64,000 bases of DNA from a phage. A program made the translations under genes and the position numbers. This document shows, one piece after another, positions 4,834 through 45,727 of the stretch; position 1 is the stretch's first letter, and every line of letters begins with the position of its first letter. The notes under the pieces are model-generated. The model made no database searches. It saw only the letters and a list, made by a program, of their open reading frames with translations, and was not told the origin of the DNA. The stretch lies in sequence record PZ402301.1; one strand, given 5' to 3'.

Positions 4834-4984
4834 TGGTAGATAACAACACAAATGTTAAATATGCACACATACCCTGGGCTAAAGCTTGTGAAAACACACT
4901 ACTAGCATCGATACAGATAGTTAAAACACATGCTACTATCCAACAAATAAATGAAATAACTCCTAATAGTTTTGCAATATTCAT
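4826..4984 (-). CDS. small membrane peptide (52 aa), ac-like by position
   Basis: Hand-found ORF MNIAKLLGVISFICWIVACVLTICIDASS... preceded by AGGAAA; T4 has ac (51 aa) at this position. Confidence 0.4.
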   Translation of the reverse strand: MNIAKLLGVISFICWIVACVLTICIDASSVFSQALAQGMCAYLTFVLLSTND

Positions 4985-30723: not shown

Positions 30724-31068
30724 TTAAAATAATTTAAATTTTTTCTTTGACCTTTTATTAAATGCATCTTGTAGTTGCATTGTAATACATTTTTCTACAT
30801 GAGGAGCTAACTCAGCTTTTCTTTCTTGGTCAAGAACAGCAAAGTCCATTACGACTTTTCCATCAACCCAATCTAATTTTGTCACATACACAATGTGTGT
30901 AGAACCGTCTTCTAGTTTAATGACAATCTCCTGGATAACATTTTCCATAGCAGATTTAATTATCTTAAGAGATTCATTAAAAAGACGTTCTTTTCTTTCT
31001 TCTTCCCCCTCCGAAGAGGGGGATTCATCGATAATTTCTAGATCTAAATCTAAATCATCTTTATTCAT
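30724..31068 (-). CDS. 40: gp40-like protein (head vertex assembly in T4)
   Basis: Acidic ORF between uvsX and gp41; start probably at the internal Met, giving about 114 aa. Confidence 0.5.
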   Translation of the reverse strand: MNKDDLDLDLEIIDESPSSEGEEERKERLFNESLKIIKSAMENVIQEIVIKLEDGSTHIVYVTKLDWVDGKVVMDFAVLDQERKAELAPHVEKCITMQLQDAFNKRSKKKFKLF

Positions 31069-32242
31069 TAAATTCTTCCATATCACTTAACTGATCTAGG
31101 TCAGTTTCTAAATCAGCTGCTGATTTACTTTTACTTTCTGGAGATTTAAATTTTTCAACCTTTGAGTTAATCAATTCATCAACTTCAGCTTCAACAATTT
31201 CATTACTATCAATAGCACCTAACTGATAAGCGCGTTTAATAGCATCTCGGAATGGTTGATGCTTAAATAAAGGACCCCAGAATGTAGTACAGTTGGTATC
31301 TTTTGCACGCCAAGATTTTTCTTCGCGAATCATCTCGCCGGTTTCTTCATCAAGAAATTCACGAGCATACCAGCCATTTTTAGGTTTTACTACAAATCCT
31401 AATTCAAGAGCCATATCTAACAATCCAGAATAAGGATCGATACCACCGTCAAATTTAACATCAATAAAGAATTTACTTTTTTCTTTAACAGTACGAGATT
31501 TTTCTACATTTAGAACAAATTGATACCCCTGAAGATCAGAACCATCTTTAATCTGGCGCTTACCGATAATGAATACAGTATCAGCCGAATACATTACGCC
31601 TGTACCACCTGTCATCACGGTTTTACTAAACATTTCAATTGTTTCAATTGTATGGTTAACCGCAACACATGGAATGTTTTTAATACTAAAATAAGGAGTA
31701 ACAATACGGAATAATGACTTCAGTGATTTAGCACGAGTCATATCTGCCACAGATTTTTCATTCAAGGCATCTTCCGTTTCTTTCTTAGAAGCCATATTAC
31801 CGATTGAGTCGATGAATACAATAACTTTTTCACCGCGCTCGATAGCTTCAAGCTGATTCACCATATCAATTTTCAGTTGTTCAACTGACTGAATTGGCGT
31901 ATGAATTACTCGTTCAGGGTCAACTCCCATGGACCGCAAATAAGCTGGAGTAATACCAAATTCGCTATCATAAAATAGACAAACCGCGTCAGGATATTTG
32001 TTCAAATACGCCGCAACCATAGTCAAAGACATATTTGATTTAAAGTGTTTAGAAGGACCTGCAAAAATAGTTAAACCAGACTGCATACCACCATCAATCG
32101 CGCCAGAAATAGCGATATTAAGCATTGGGATTTTTGTACGGATTACATCCTTTTCATTAAAGAATTTAGATGTAGTCAGTTCAGCAGTCATTTTAGAAGT
32201 GGAAGCTTTAATCAAACGGGATTTTAAATCTGCAATAGACAT
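31061..32242 (-). CDS. uvsX: RecA-like recombinase UvsX
   Basis: 393 aa with RecA-fold P-loop (GPSKHFKS) and a C-terminal acidic tail. Confidence 0.9.
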   Translation of the reverse strand: MSIADLKSRLIKASTSKMTAELTTSKFFNEKDVIRTKIPMLNIAISGAIDGGMQSGLTIFAGPSKHFKSNMSLTMVAAYLNKYPDAVCLFYDSEFGITPAYLRSMGVDPERVIHTPIQSVEQLKIDMVNQLEAIERGEKVIVFIDSIGNMASKKETEDALNEKSVADMTRAKSLKSLFRIVTPYFSIKNIPCVAVNHTIETIEMFSKTVMTGGTGVMYSADTVFIIGKRQIKDGSDLQGYQFVLNVEKSRTVKEKSKFFIDVKFDGGIDPYSGLLDMALELGFVVKPKNGWYAREFLDEETGEMIREEKSWRAKDTNCTTFWGPLFKHQPFRDAIKRAYQLGAIDSNEIVEAEVDELINSKVEKFKSPESKSKSAADLETDLDQLSDMEEFNE

Positions 32243-32319
32243 TCATTTTTTCCATAGGCATCATTATATTTTCCTCACTGGTTAAAGATAGGGTAATTAT
32301 AACACAATAAATTTAGGCA

Positions 32320-33168
32320 TTAATCAACTGCTATTGGATGAATAGCATTAAACTTATGAAACGCTTCTGATTTTTCTTTGCGCGAAACACACATGCGAAG
32401 AACCTTTAATGGCTCGTCTTCTTCACCTAATGATTTTCGTTTTTCAATATTAGAAGTTTTCCAACGAGCTTGCTCTGGAAACTCTTTATTGATTTGCTCA
32501 AGAGCTCTATTATGTTTTGAATTACTACGAATTGAACTACATCCGCCTGGAGCTTGTGCTTTTCCAGATACAACCAGATATTTGAACAAAGCCAAATGCG
32601 GATAACCTTGATTAATTAAATTGAGAAATGCATACATATCTTCGCATAAATCAATTTTTCCATACCCAATTTGTTCTGTTGTAAGTTTTCCAAGGTCATA
32701 CCAGGTATTCGTGAATCCATATGAATTTTCACGATAATTACCCCAAGATGAAGTAATTTTAAAAATAGGTAGACGAGCATGACCGTGATAATACCCACAA
32801 TCCATGGCATCTTCAACGTATTGAATTAATTCATAGAACTGTTCACGGGTTAATTGATTAATTTTATCTACGCAGCGACGATCATCTTTCTTTCGCATTG
32901 AACTCATACGAATAGTAGTATCATCGTCAATCATCCAAATTCGTTGACCTGCATACATATCAGTAATTGCTTTACGAGTACCAGCAATTCCATTGACATC
33001 ATCAGGAATAGTTATAATTTTAGCTCTAGACCCATAAGCGTCATAATAAGCTTTTTCTTCGTGTTCACGTACTACAATATGTGGTTCATACTCAGTCGGA
33101 AACATATCAAGGGCAGAAACTGCCCCTACGCGTTGATAGCTTGGAATTACGAATTGAATCATTTCCAC
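32320..33168 (-). CDS. GT-A-like glycosyltransferase at the beta-gt locus
   Basis: 282 aa with FVIPSYQR and a DxD-type motif (RIWMIDDDTTI); lies between uvsX and gp42; does not resemble recalled T4 beta-gt (351 aa). Confidence 0.5.
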   Translation of the reverse strand: MEMIQFVIPSYQRVGAVSALDMFPTEYEPHIVVREHEEKAYYDAYGSRAKIITIPDDVNGIAGTRKAITDMYAGQRIWMIDDDTTIRMSSMRKKDDRRCVDKINQLTREQFYELIQYVEDAMDCGYYHGHARLPIFKITSSWGNYRENSYGFTNTWYDLGKLTTEQIGYGKIDLCEDMYAFLNLINQGYPHLALFKYLVVSGKAQAPGGCSSIRSNSKHNRALEQINKEFPEQARWKTSNIEKRKSLGEEDEPLKVLRMCVSRKEKSEAFHKFNAIHPIAVD

Positions 33169-33899
33169 TCACCGTTATAATCTTTTTTCGCAATATGAGT
33201 TTCGCCAGTTTTCCACCAATGGTCAACCAAATAAAAATGACGGGAATACACGTGAAGGCTCCCGACGTTCCATATAATGGAACCTGCTTTATACTGACGA
33301 GTTGAATCACCTGCATTCAAATCAGATACTAATTTATCTAGTACGTATTTTTGCCATGCATAATCATTACGGAATCCGAAGACCACGTCATTTGAACGCA
33401 TGCTTACTACTGCATTGACTTTCTTATCACGAATCAGATACTGTACTGTATTCGTACACATGAAATCTGACATGCCATCTTTATTGTAGTCAAACTGCAT
33501 GGATGGACGAGTATAAATCATGATACCACGTCGAGAATCAGGATTTTGACCAAGTTCAGCTAAACACATATCATATTGGGCATAGTTATCTTCTGACCAG
33601 ATGGCCCAACCATAATTCGAGTTAATTTCGCCTTTAGAAGATGCTACCTGCTGCCAAATCTTTGGTGTTTCACCTGGAATATCTTTAACAAACAAACTTT
33701 GAGACTTATACCATTCAAGTTCACGCTGAATGTATTCATCATTAAGAGCGCCAAAAATAAAAGGTTCATCTGCTACAAATGATGCACCAATAATTTCAAT
33801 AGTTTTAACACCGGTTTTATCAATTACGAAATCTTTTTCCTTTAATGCAAGACCCAAATCAAGACGGATTTCTTCAACTGTCATATAATCGTTAATCAT
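33159..33899 (-). CDS. 42: dCMP hydroxymethylase gp42
   Basis: 246 aa, thymidylate-synthase-like, with the T4 gp42 length. Confidence 0.9.
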   Translation of the reverse strand: MINDYMTVEEIRLDLGLALKEKDFVIDKTGVKTIEIIGASFVADEPFIFGALNDEYIQRELEWYKSQSLFVKDIPGETPKIWQQVASSKGEINSNYGWAIWSEDNYAQYDMCLAELGQNPDSRRGIMIYTRPSMQFDYNKDGMSDFMCTNTVQYLIRDKKVNAVVSMRSNDVVFGFRNDYAWQKYVLDKLVSDLNAGDSTRQYKAGSIIWNVGSLHVYSRHFYLVDHWWKTGETHIAKKDYNGEWK

Positions 33900-34052
33900 T
33901 TAAACCTCAATTGATGCATTCATATTTAACTTGTAACAGTAATAAACTCCACCCTATAATAAGCGTTGGAATCATACAAGGAACTGTTACGCTATAGTAT
34001 ATACTTATTATAATCATCAAGATTAAAAGCAATACTGCTAAAATTTTGCTTT

Positions 34053-34304
34053 TCATTCCTTCTCTCTGATGATAATTACTTGATTTTGCTGTACAGATTT
34101 TTTAGTTTCACCTGCAATTGACCAAATAAAGGTAATAAACCAACCAATAATTGACCAGTTAAACAGTAAAGACGTGAAAAAGATTCCTACTGTCGATTTT
34201 GACCCACGCATCAAGGCGATGAACCACGGAAGCATGTATATAATAATAGCCAACACGCCTGAAACTAAAACCATAAAAATTGAACCTGCTACTAAAGTTT
34301 CCAT
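34053..34304 (-). CDS. imm: immunity (superinfection exclusion) membrane protein Imm
   Basis: 83-aa two-helix membrane protein at the T4 imm position. Confidence 0.8.
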   Translation of the reverse strand: METLVAGSIFMVLVSGVLAIIIYMLPWFIALMRGSKSTVGIFFTSLLFNWSIIGWFITFIWSIAGETKKSVQQNQVIIIREKE

Positions 34305-34311
34305 GTTTTCC

Positions 34312-34692
34312 TCACTTAGTCAAATTTTTTACACATGAATTATAAGAATTCACTACATACTCCATCGGAGCATTTTTACCAGTACGCCATTGGTAATTAT
34401 TAGCCCAATTAGCCCAAAGTTCAGCACAGTAATTTTCAATTTTTTCTTCACGCGTAATCACATCTGAATTACGATATGCTTGTGCAGATTCATCTGGACG
34501 AATAGCTTCGTCAAAATTCGCCTGCATTTGTTCTACTGTCTGTTTTGGAGCCTCTTTATAACACTTGACGTTAGGATTATAAAATTTGCTTGAACAGTTT
34601 ACAATTTTTCCTACATCAGACTGATTTACTACTGGTCCTTGAGCTACACAACCAGTAAGACCCAATGCAATAACCAAAATAGCGATTTTCAT
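34312..34692 (-). CDS. predicted lipoprotein
   Basis: Internal ATG after GGAGAA gives MKIAILVIALGLTGC (lipobox); the track ORF 34312..34881 runs through the promoter. Confidence 0.5.
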   Translation of the reverse strand: MKIAILVIALGLTGCVAQGPVVNQSDVGKIVNCSSKFYNPNVKCYKEAPKQTVEQMQANFDEAIRPDESAQAYRNSDVITREEKIENYCAELWANWANNYQWRTGKNAPMEYVVNSYNSCVKNLTK

Positions 34693-34710
34693 TTCATTCT
34701 CCAAATCCGC

Positions 34711-34776
34711 ATCAGTTGATAGTTGTATAGTACCACAAAGGAACCGGGATGTAAACAGTTTTGTGAAAAAATTTTT
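34711..34776 (-). promoter_or_regulatory. T4-type early promoter
   Basis: Copy of the conserved block (UP region, GTTTAC, TGGTACTATACAACT). Confidence 0.55.
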
Positions 34777-34844
34777 AATGAATTCCAGATGCCCAGAATC
34801 ATCTATTTTTCCTAAGTATAGATTTATATTACTTGTATGAAAAA

Positions 34845-34860
34845 GGGACCCGGAGGTCCC
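34845..34860 (-). terminator. hairpin downstream of gene 43
   Basis: gggacc-cgga-ggtccc followed by a T-run. Confidence 0.5.
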
Positions 34861-34873
34861 TAGATTTATTCTA

Positions 34874-37570
34874 TCAGCCAAACAAGAAGTCTAACGAAGC
34901 TTTTTCCTCATAGTCCATACCTGCCGATTCACACATGCCCGCAAGCGGTTTAACAAACGATTTTTGGAACAAAGTTGAGTAGTCAATCCAAGACAGTACA
35001 TCAGAACGAATTTCTTTTGGAAGTTCCGTACCCGACGGCCAAGCAATGCACTTGTCACCAAATGGATTTCCCTCACGTAATGGAAGAACCATTACCTTAT
35101 TTCCATCCAAAATTGGAGCTACACCTAAACCACTAACAGCTCGACGATAAGTTAGCACCCCACGAATGTGGAACGGGCATTTAAATCCTGGCCAACCTTT
35201 ATCGTCATATTTCGCTATATCGTTCGCGGTTTTTACTTCAGCAATAACTTTATAGTCAAGTTGACGATATTCTTTCTCAAAGTTCTTGTAGTATTCTTGG
35301 ACAGACTCTTCGCCTTCCTGAAGAATACGACGAATACTTTCTTCGAGAGCTTCTTGTACTGCTTTTGGTGTTGAACTCTGCTGAGTTTCCATACCCATGA
35401 TTTTTAGATGCGGTTCAGCAAATCGTTTATCTTCCATATCATAAACGTTCAGAGCATAACGTTTTTTCGCTTTCCAAAATCCACCAACACCCTTTGAACC
35501 AAGTGGAGGGCAAGAAATAGCTTCACGGTCCATATGCATCAGATGCTCGCGGTTATTCATATAATCACATAACTCACGATATGCAACATCAATCATAGGT
35601 TCCATCTTTTTCTTACCAAACTGATTCATAAATTCAACTAAATCATTTTGTTCTTTAAAGCGGTCAAGACCTACTTTTTCAATAACTTTATCTACACAAA
35701 CATATACCGAATCAGTATCACCCGCTGCGATGAAATCTTCACCATCAGTTCCACACACTTTATTCAGATATTCATTAATTTTACGAGCAATCCACTGAAT
35801 ACCAACTTGACCAAAAATTGTGATAGCAGTAGCATTTCGCAAATCATAATAGCGGAAATGAATATTACCAAGAGCACCATAAAGACTGTTGATAAGAATT
35901 TTACGGTTCAGCTGATTTGTGTTAGCAAGTGTAGCTGCTTTTTCACATTCTTCGATCAGACTATTAAGAACAGATTCAGTGTAATTCGATAATTCGTTTA
36001 AGAAATCATCATTGAATTTAACATATCGTTCAACTTCTGGTTTAGTTGAACAAGACCCTGCACCTTTCATAATAATCTTTTTAATAGCTTCGGCATTCAT
36101 TTCTTCAGCGAACATTTTCTTTTTCCAATCTTTACGTTGGAAAAATACTTTAGCGATTTCCTTTGGAATGATACCTTCTTGATGCTTATCATACATCCAT
36201 CCATTAGGAGAACAAGAATATTCATCACTTGGCTTAGGAGCTGTTCCTGCGATATATTCATGAATTGGATGAACTTTAAACTGCCCACGAATAGTCTCAG
36301 GACTAATGTTAACCTGACGAATAATGCTAGGATACAGAGACGTCAAGTCAAAACTCATAATGTATCGACGAGCAATCGGTTTAGGTTCAAATACAAATGC
36401 ACCTGGAAAACTCTGTTTAACGTGCGAACCTTGTTGAGGAATAACCTTATGTTCGCCTTTCAGTGAGTTAAAAATAATAGCGTCCCAAGTTTTAATAGGA
36501 CTCATTACACCAGAAAAAGGCATTTTAGCGTAATAAGACATACTTAAAACTAGATCAATAAACCCACGAATTTTATCAATTGCTTGAACTGATTCTACGT
36601 CAATGATGTTATAACTAATGTATCGTTGATGATTAGTCTCACGAAGTTTATTAATAGGACCATCGTACGGCAATTTACCTTTTTTGGTTTCGTGCTGAGC
36701 AACTGATTCCAAAGAGAATGATGGCAAATTAGTAAATGCGAATTTTTTGTACAAATCTAAATAATCAAGAATAGATACGCCATCAATAGAATAAATTTCT
36801 TTGCTACCGTACATATTTTGAATTAGTTTAGATTTTACTCGACCGATTGGAGAGAAGCGTTTCATACTACGTTCACCGAGAACCATTTTAACACGATTCA
36901 TGATATACGGAACGTCAAATCCCTCAATATTCCAACCGGTAAAAATAGCAGGTCGTTTCTGTTCCCAGAGATTAATATATTCCATGAGCATATCGCGCTC
37001 ATTATCAAATGGCATATAAATTACTCGGTCAAGAATTTCTTGAGGAACTTCATCACCACCTTCACAGTCAAGCTTAGCAGCTAACTTTGCATCCCATTTT
37101 GATACTGAACCGTACATTGAATTCAACAAATCAAAGACGTAAAAACGGTCGTCAATTGAATCATAATGAGTGATAGCATCAATTTCATATTCTGCTTTCA
37201 TTGGGTCAGGAAATTTATCACCAGTAACCTCAATGTCACAGTTAGCTACACGAACAAATTTTCGGTCATAAACAATTTCTGAACCATATGTATCACTGAT
37301 ATAAGCGAGTTTAAAATCGTTCATACCAAGAGCTTCGAGACCGATGTCTTCCATTCGCTTCATCCAGTCTCGTGCATCTTTCATTGATGGAAATTTTTGA
37401 GGAGCGCAATTTTTACCGTAAATGTCTTTGTACTTTGACTCTTCCTTACAATGCCTAAACATAGTCGGAAGATATTCTACTTCACGAGTACGTTCCTTTC
37501 CGTTTTCATCAATATAACGCTCAACAATATTATTTCCGACTGTTTCGATAGAGATATAAAATTCTTTCAT
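34874..37570 (-). CDS. 43: DNA polymerase gp43 (family B)
   Basis: 898 aa with exonuclease and polymerase motifs (DTDS), matching recalled T4 gp43 almost throughout. Confidence 0.95.
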   Translation of the reverse strand: MKEFYISIETVGNNIVERYIDENGKERTREVEYLPTMFRHCKEESKYKDIYGKNCAPQKFPSMKDARDWMKRMEDIGLEALGMNDFKLAYISDTYGSEIVYDRKFVRVANCDIEVTGDKFPDPMKAEYEIDAITHYDSIDDRFYVFDLLNSMYGSVSKWDAKLAAKLDCEGGDEVPQEILDRVIYMPFDNERDMLMEYINLWEQKRPAIFTGWNIEGFDVPYIMNRVKMVLGERSMKRFSPIGRVKSKLIQNMYGSKEIYSIDGVSILDYLDLYKKFAFTNLPSFSLESVAQHETKKGKLPYDGPINKLRETNHQRYISYNIIDVESVQAIDKIRGFIDLVLSMSYYAKMPFSGVMSPIKTWDAIIFNSLKGEHKVIPQQGSHVKQSFPGAFVFEPKPIARRYIMSFDLTSLYPSIIRQVNISPETIRGQFKVHPIHEYIAGTAPKPSDEYSCSPNGWMYDKHQEGIIPKEIAKVFFQRKDWKKKMFAEEMNAEAIKKIIMKGAGSCSTKPEVERYVKFNDDFLNELSNYTESVLNSLIEECEKAATLANTNQLNRKILINSLYGALGNIHFRYYDLRNATAITIFGQVGIQWIARKINEYLNKVCGTDGEDFIAAGDTDSVYVCVDKVIEKVGLDRFKEQNDLVEFMNQFGKKKMEPMIDVAYRELCDYMNNREHLMHMDREAISCPPLGSKGVGGFWKAKKRYALNVYDMEDKRFAEPHLKIMGMETQQSSTPKAVQEALEESIRRILQEGEESVQEYYKNFEKEYRQLDYKVIAEVKTANDIAKYDDKGWPGFKCPFHIRGVLTYRRAVSGLGVAPILDGNKVMVLPLREGNPFGDKCIAWPSGTELPKEIRSDVLSWIDYSTLFQKSFVKPLAGMCESAGMDYEEKASLDFLFG

Positions 37571-44508: not shown

Positions 44509-44526
44509 AAAGGGCCGAAGCCCTTT
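44509..44526 (-). terminator. UUCG tetraloop hairpin downstream of alpha-gt
   Basis: aaagggccgaagcccttt followed by a T-run. Confidence 0.5.
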
Positions 44527-45727
44527 ATTTTGTAATAATGTCAAACTGTTCTTTAAAGCAGAAGCTTGAATCTTGATGCTGATACAAAAATTCATAAGCT
44601 TTTTCGCGTTCACGGTCATAAAGAGCTCGGTCAGATGACAGTTCTTTAATACGCTCAAATGTTGATTCCATGTCATTTTCATCAAACCAAACGATACCGC
44701 TATCATGAGAAATTAACGGAGTATTATCAACACGGAATTTTAAATTTTCGCCAGTAGATTTCCAAAATACTGGAATTGTTCCACATGCACCAAGCTCGAG
44801 ATGAGTGTATTCTAAAGAACGTTGCAGATATTTTTTGTCCAACTTGCTCAGCTGATAACCAAATCCGGATTTACTCATGCGTTCAAGCATTTCGCTATTT
44901 ACATAACGGTCAAGAATTTGCGTCGGCAAATTAGGAGCAATTTTAATTTGGTCTACTTGATGAAGACGATAATACTCGTATGGAATTCCTTTTTCTTTAA
45001 TAGGAATGAACGCTGGAGAACGTTCCAGACCTTCCATAATAGTACTTAGTCCTGCAGGTTTAAGATGTTTTTCGTGAAAATCAAACATCTGATAAAAGCC
45101 TTTCCATGTAGTAGTACGACCAATCCAACGGTTGATATTCATGTTAATTTCAGAAACATCTTTCCAGTAGGTTGATCGAACTTTCGCAATATCCATAGGA
45201 GGCTGGAAGTTATATACGGTCGGTGCTTCTTCAATATCATCAAACAAAGAAACTGTTTCTGGATACCATTCTTTCATTAAAACTTTATTAAAATCACCAT
45301 TATCAGAATGGCTAAAAATAACATCAGCTCGACGAACAGTTTCTTCTAATCCCAAATTTCGGCGTAAAGAAAGAGAAGAATGGTCATGCTGATAAACTAC
45401 AACACGAACCGAAGGTTTAATGTTATCAATAATTTTTTTATAGTTATTAATCGTGTCTTCTTCGACTGAAGTAGCAGGAACTGAATTGATAATTAGAATA
45501 TCACAATCATTTACCAGCTTAAGGGTTTTATCGTATTCTTTTGCCAATAAAACCGGAATTGAAAATGACTTATAATCATGTGCGCAATTACGAGTAAAAG
45601 ATTTATCTTTAGCATAAACCAAAGTTACTTCATGACCATTTTTAATAAACCAATCACGCTGCTCAAGAGAAAATTTAGTTACACCACAACCTTCAAGACC
45701 TCGAGCCATAAAAATGCATACTTTCAT
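44525..45727 (-). CDS. a-gt: DNA alpha-glucosyltransferase
   Basis: 400 aa at the T4 alpha-gt position with a GT-B-like layout. Confidence 0.7.
   Translation of the reverse strand: MKVCIFMARGLEGCGVTKFSLEQRDWFIKNGHEVTLVYAKDKSFTRNCAHDYKSFSIPVLLAKEYDKTLKLVNDCDILIINSVPATSVEEDTINNYKKIIDNIKPSVRVVVYQHDHSSLSLRRNLGLEETVRRADVIFSHSDNGDFNKVLMKEWYPETVSLFDDIEEAPTVYNFQPPMDIAKVRSTYWKDVSEINMNINRWIGRTTTWKGFYQMFDFHEKHLKPAGLSTIMEGLERSPAFIPIKEKGIPYEYYRLHQVDQIKIAPNLPTQILDRYVNSEMLERMSKSGFGYQLSKLDKKYLQRSLEYTHLELGACGTIPVFWKSTGENLKFRVDNTPLISHDSGIVWFDENDMESTFERIKELSSDRALYDREREKAYEFLYQHQDSSFCFKEQFDIITK

Follow-up and report, generated by a model that had tools for sequence, protein, structure and literature searches.

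The gene between uvsX and gene 42 in the window, the 64-kb stretch of phage DNA analysed here, is almost certainly an intact T2/T6-type beta-glucosyl-HMC-alpha-glucosyltransferase (ggt, beta-alpha-GT, TAGT), which attaches a second glucose to alpha-glucosyl-hydroxymethylcytosine (alpha-glucosyl-hmC) and gives gentiobiosyl-hmC. The gene and family identity, fold class, motifs and partner genes, and the lack of beta-gt in the window, were established here; the reaction chemistry comes from classical T2/T6 enzymology and from LC-MS of related phages. The best match of the protein is that of phage PP01 (99.3% identity), annotated 'b-gt: beta-glucosyl-HMC-alpha-glucosyl-transferase', and direct comparisons gave 97% identity to T6, 98% to T2 and 97% to BGP; in a comparison of six sequences, D24E is the only substitution that the window alone shows. 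BGP (OZ035849.1) also ranks with the nearest relatives of the window across 26-40 kb, at 96.5% nucleotide identity. The gene is named ggt in RB18, and the product name beta-glucosyl-HMC-alpha-glucosyl-transferase is used in many other records. By tblastn, the protein was found in 690 of 50,697 phage records, 472 of them at an identity of at least 95%.

Locus, partner genes and start codon

The genes and codons concerned are as follows.

31061..32242, minus strand: uvsX, the downstream neighbour, a 393-aa ORF 90% identical to T4 UvsX (tblastn)
32320..33162, minus strand: transferase coding sequence (beta-glucosyl-HMC-alpha-glucosyltransferase, TAGT, PF20691), 280 aa with the ATG at 33162 as start, stop included
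33163..33168, minus strand: GTG GAA, the two codons by which the mechanical ORF is longer, within the end of gene 42
33159..33899, minus strand: gene 42, dCMP hydroxymethylase, a 246-aa ORF 95.5% identical to T4 gp42 (tblastn)
44525..45727, minus strand: alpha-gt, DNA alpha-glucosyltransferase, an intact 400-aa ORF with 91% identity to T4 alpha-gt across residues 1-400

The T4 queries (b-gt, a-gt, 42, uvsX and segA) were taken from NC_000866 and searched against the window, and the tblastn match of T4 alpha-gt (44528..45727) spans all 400 residues. A first-pass annotation of this DNA had placed the transferase between uvsX and gp42 and had listed alpha-gt and gp42 as present; both statements hold, as the neighbours and the partner are close to their T4 counterparts and the gp42 and alpha-gt ORFs are intact. 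PP01, T6, T2 and BGP share the order uvsX / transferase / gene 42.

The mechanical ORF listing and its translation give a frame at 32320..33168 (minus) with a GTG start and 282 aa, including the segment RIWMIDDDTTI. The third codon of this frame is an ATG (33162..33160) that forms an ATGA overlap with the TGA stop of gene 42. In PP01, T2 and BGP, the annotated transferase genes have a length of 843 nt, encode 280 aa and begin MIQFVIPSY, and a protein cluster of 485 members (P0001) likewise starts with MIQFVIPSY and has a 280-aa product. Because of this overlap and the shared start of homologues and annotated coding sequences, the ATG at 33162 was preferred to the GTG start. The codons GTG GAA are probably not translated in the transferase, and the real product is most likely a 280-aa protein translationally coupled to gene 42. 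Thus, the earlier description of a 282-aa protein with a DxD-type motif stands with regard to the ORF and the motif, and its start is replaced by the ATG two codons downstream.

Several further features of the region were observed. The spacer between uvsX and the transferase gene is only 77 nt long (32243..32319), and segA, a GIY-YIG homing endonuclease gene that sits here in T4, had no tblastn match anywhere in the window. A scan for promoters and terminators over 31900-34500 revealed no excess over shuffled sequence (11 against 11.9 expected, and 2 against 1.5). The gap between gene 42 and imm is exactly spanned by a strongly hydrophobic 49-aa ORF (MKSKILAVLLLILMIIISIYY...; 33907..34056, minus), the ATG of which forms an ATGA with the stop of imm. 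It is annotated in BGP only and is absent from the T4 reference annotation; its protein is conserved at 88-94% in T4, T2, T6, PP01 and BGP, but the DNA identity is 92-96%, so that conservation alone is no proof of coding. Upstream of imm, a 189-aa mechanical ORF (34312..34881, minus) contains an imm.1 homologue, in which the sequence from an internal Met starts MKIAILVIALGLTGC and, judged from the translation, looks like a lipobox-bearing lipoprotein signal peptide.

Family membership, fold and candidate residues

The transferase matches Pfam PF20691 (TAGT, TET-associated glycosyltransferase) at 38.8 bits, above the gathering threshold of 27.5 bits, and with full-length domain coverage (residues 5-209 against profile positions 2-205 of 205). 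The homologues found for it likewise carry PF20691, and PHROG 842, 'beta-glucosyl-HMC-alpha-glucosyltransferase', matches at E = 9.5e-90. NCBIfam holds no model for the protein, Pfam gave no GT2-type match even at E up to 10, and a sequence search of the PDB returned no relative (best E = 0.95, spurious); to our knowledge, no member of the TAGT family has an experimental structure. The enzyme agrees with T2/T6 ggt in close homology (97-98% identity and an equal length of 280 aa), in its uvsX-gene 42 slot directly downstream of gene 42, in its co-occurrence with gp42 and alpha-gt and in its DDD and ED motifs. It differs by a handful of conservative substitutions only, and the window copy is intact, whereas both public T6 records carry a lesion. 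A T2/T6-style second-sugar transferase had been offered as one example of what the locus might encode, and profile matches and alignment alike bear it out.

Three motifs stand out when the window protein is aligned with nine relatives from databases, the most distant of which is 32% identical.

33136..33147, minus strand: I-P-S-Y, codons 6-9, where the first beta-strand (E2-6 in the model) ends, invariant
32920..32928, minus strand: D-D-D (DxD motif), codons 79-81, at the C-terminus of model strand E74-79, invariant including the 32%-identical relative
32638..32643, minus strand: E-D, codons 174-175, at the start of helix H174-184 in the model, conserved in the alignment

The residues I6-P7-S8-Y9, D79-D80-D81 and D175 are invariant across the ten sequences and E174 nearly so; the transferase ORF and all invariant residues are intact in the window. 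The AlphaFold2 model, built from a shallow alignment, is of moderate quality (mean pLDDT 68, pTM 0.69): the N-terminal 125 residues mostly reach pLDDT 63-93, and residues 126-151 and the C-terminus are poor. Strands alternate with helices in this model, forming a single Rossmann-like nucleotide-diphospho-sugar transferase domain with the DDD directly after strand 74-79, and the end of a core beta-strand is the canonical position of the DxD in GT-A enzymes. The earlier reading of a GT-A-like glycosyltransferase with a DxD motif is therefore sustained by both the model and the alignment. The DDD is predicted to bind a divalent metal and the diphosphate of UDP-glucose. The IPSY motif appears to resemble the N-terminal nucleotide-binding motif of GT2 enzymes, 'IPxYN', and D175 is a candidate catalytic base for inverting transfer, by analogy with the 'ED/TED' motif of the same enzymes. 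Since a beta-1,6 product arises from a UDP-alpha-glucose donor, the configuration would be inverted, as in GT2-like GT-A enzymes. For the T6 enzyme, PMC13216743 describes an AlphaFold3 model with the GT-A fold that groups as sister to GT2.

The relationship to other inverting GT-A enzymes of the GT2 family (BcsA, TarP/TarS, GlfT2 and SpsA-like enzymes) is not accompanied by any Pfam GT2 sequence match; in contrast to these enzymes, the substrate of the window enzyme is a DNA-borne glucose, and its C-terminal 70 residues have no confident counterpart. The founders of PF20691, TET-associated glycosyltransferases from phages that oxidize 5mC in the TET/JBP manner, belong to the same family, and the match at 38.8 bits is full-length but distant. 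In TET-associated systems, hmC arises by TET oxidation in DNA, whereas in the window phage it is supplied by gp42 at the nucleotide level; moreover, the acceptor of the window enzyme is a sugar already on the base, unlike that of the TET-associated glycosyltransferases. How a GT-A enzyme reaches a base-attached glucose in duplex DNA is a question for the whole family rather than for this window.

T4 beta-gt occupies the equivalent slot downstream of gene 42 and likewise uses UDP-glucose, forms an inverting beta linkage and acts on phage DNA. However, it is a GT-B-fold protein (PF09198; CAZy GT63/72-type phage enzymes), whereas the window enzyme is of GT-A type, showing neither sequence homology to that family nor its two-domain fold. 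The claim that the protein has no resemblance to beta-gt was correct: BLASTP against T4 beta-gt and alpha-gt yielded noise (E of 2.4 or worse; best E against beta-gt = 15), and tblastn detected no T4 beta-gt homologue in the entire 64-kb window (best E = 1.3). The acceptors differ as well, being the glucose of alpha-glucosyl-hmC for the window enzyme and the hydroxymethyl group of hmC for T4 beta-gt, according to PMC13216743.

Expected DNA modification and alternative readings

The functions of gp42 and alpha-GT are established knowledge, and their genes are seen here. In the proposed pathway, gp42 would make 5-hydroxymethyl-dCMP, so that C in the phage DNA is replaced by hmC, and alpha-GT would then move glucose from UDP-glucose to hmC in DNA in alpha linkage. 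The window transferase would subsequently transfer a second glucose from UDP-alpha-glucose to the 6-OH of the first, with the DDD holding the metal and the UDP-sugar and D175 probably acting as the base, to give beta-1,6-linked gentiobiosyl-hmC. The resulting DNA would be a mix of hmC, alpha-glucosyl-hmC and alpha-gentiobiosyl-hmC without beta-glucosyl-hmC, unlike that of T4. A modification different from that of T4 had been predicted from the locus, and the joint presence of a ggt-type gene and alpha-gt, with beta-gt absent from the window, supports it. The T2/T6 genes were reportedly first cloned by Winkler and Rueger (Nucleic Acids Res 1993). Classical enzymology holds that ggt glucosylates alpha-glucosyl-hmC (refs 17, 18 and 21, as cited in PMC13216743), and that article (Nucleic Acids Res 2026) describes TAGT as adding glucose to an already alpha-glucosylated cytosine to yield 5-gentiobiosyl-methylcytosine.

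Related phages provide direct measurements of such DNA. HPLC/MS of the Tequatrovirus phages BGP, EL and Geo gave 5-hmdC, alpha-glc-mdC and alpha-gentiobiosyl-mdC at ~1:2:2, and seven other Tequatrovirus phages contained approximately one-third hmdC and two-thirds alpha-gentiobiosyl-mdC, with the beta-glucosylated form detected in none of the ten analysed (PMC13390438, Appl Environ Microbiol 2026). Gentiobiosyl-hmC is quoted in the same article as ~5% in T2 and ~72% in T6, though the enzymes are 98%-similar; hence, the fraction of disaccharide-bearing cytosine is not predictable from sequence, and the proportion in this phage is one that we infer. There is a small chance that the few substitutions of the window copy, or its expression context, might shift that fraction; if so, a comparison of natural variants could explain the difference between T2 and T6, a matter not specific to this window.

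The T2 figure also bears on whether the gene, though present, makes only a minor contribution and leaves the DNA essentially alpha-monoglucosylated, since the T2 gene is intact and 98% identical. This is unlikely, as all ten environmental Tequatrovirus phages contained 40-67% gentiobiosyl-hmC (PMC13390438) and the window ORF retains every invariant residue. A departure in chemistry, with a TAGT-family enzyme using another sugar (GlcNAc or a pentose) or another acceptor and producing a modification not seen in T2/T6, would be in keeping with the diversity of the family: homologues of 64-66% identity adjoin beta-gt, not alpha-gt, in CC31-, Merlin- and S16-type phages, and solitary TAGTs lacking any alpha-GT or beta-GT are described in PMC13216743, which points to specificity varying across the family. 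It is nevertheless highly improbable for a protein 97-99% identical to those of T2, T6, PP01 and BGP, with one private substitution and an alpha-gt partner of T4/T6 type, given that phages sharing this gene set were found on measurement to contain gentiobiosyl-hmC (PMC13390438).

That the enzyme functionally replaces T4 beta-gt, placing a single beta-glucose directly on hmC, is suggested by its position at the T4 beta-gt locus and by several GenBank records that say 'beta-glucosyltransferase', yet these labels are annotation transfers rather than tests. Neither sequence nor fold relates it to beta-gt, beta-glc-mdC went undetected in phages that have alpha-GT and TAGT (PMC13390438), and the acceptor in classical T2/T6 enzymology is alpha-glucosyl-hmC (refs 17, 18 and 21 of PMC13216743), so that such a replacement is scarcely credible. 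A T2/T6-type second-glucose transferase therefore remains the preferred reading.

Database records and biological meaning

Both public T6 genome records carry a ggt lesion, different in each, whereas the copies of the window, T2, PP01 and BGP are intact. In MH550421, CAG is changed to TAG at ggt codon 10 (4951-4953, minus, of the compared stretch), and the coding sequence is annotated only from Met20 (261 aa); in AP018814, ggt (2135-2974 of the compared stretch) lacks one GAT of the invariant DDD and encodes 279 aa. These lesions could be sequencing errors or lab-stock mutations, and they matter because MH550421 carries a truncated T6 ggt annotation. We take the RefSeq copy of the MH550421 ggt to be YP_010067197.1, the TAGT query in PMC13216743.

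In phages of the CC31 (GU323318 22120-24026), Merlin (NC_028857), S16 (HQ331142) and CF1 types, a 49-50% beta-gt homologue directly adjoins a 62-66% TAGT homologue, and the first glucose that goes with TAGT there is presumably beta-linked. What such a pairing of beta-gt and TAGT would make is a question likewise raised in PMC13216743. The product names of the two unrelated enzymes are also widely swapped in GenBank: the TAGT gene is labelled 'beta-glucosyltransferase' in SH7 and teqskov and 'alpha-glucosyl-transferase' in Ge15, while RB55 and 236Ecol005PP give the name 'beta-glucosyl-HMC-alpha-glucosyl-transferase' to a true T4-type beta-gt. Consequently, DNA modification inferred by name from these records is unreliable.

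In the phage collection in which the TAGT gene occurs in 690 records, a T4-type beta-gt occurs in only 126, 29 of them at an identity of at least 90%, so that the window shows what is usual in the genus, with T4 as the exception. Most T4-like coliphages carry ggt at this position; the enzyme has long been known, and the feature is a common one, textbook T-even biology re-described with modern data in 2026, to which the window adds nothing new. Its consequence lies in annotation: in the DNA of this phage, alpha-glucosyl- and alpha-gentiobiosyl-hydroxymethylcytosine are to be expected instead of the alpha/beta mixture of T4. PMC13216743 names alpha-glucosyl-hmC as the target of Brig1, and both glucosyl forms as well as gentiobiosyl-hmC as targets of GmrSD-type nucleases. 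The expected modification is thus relevant to the predicted sensitivity of the phage to glucose-specific or modification-dependent host defences and to the handling of its DNA with restriction enzymes.
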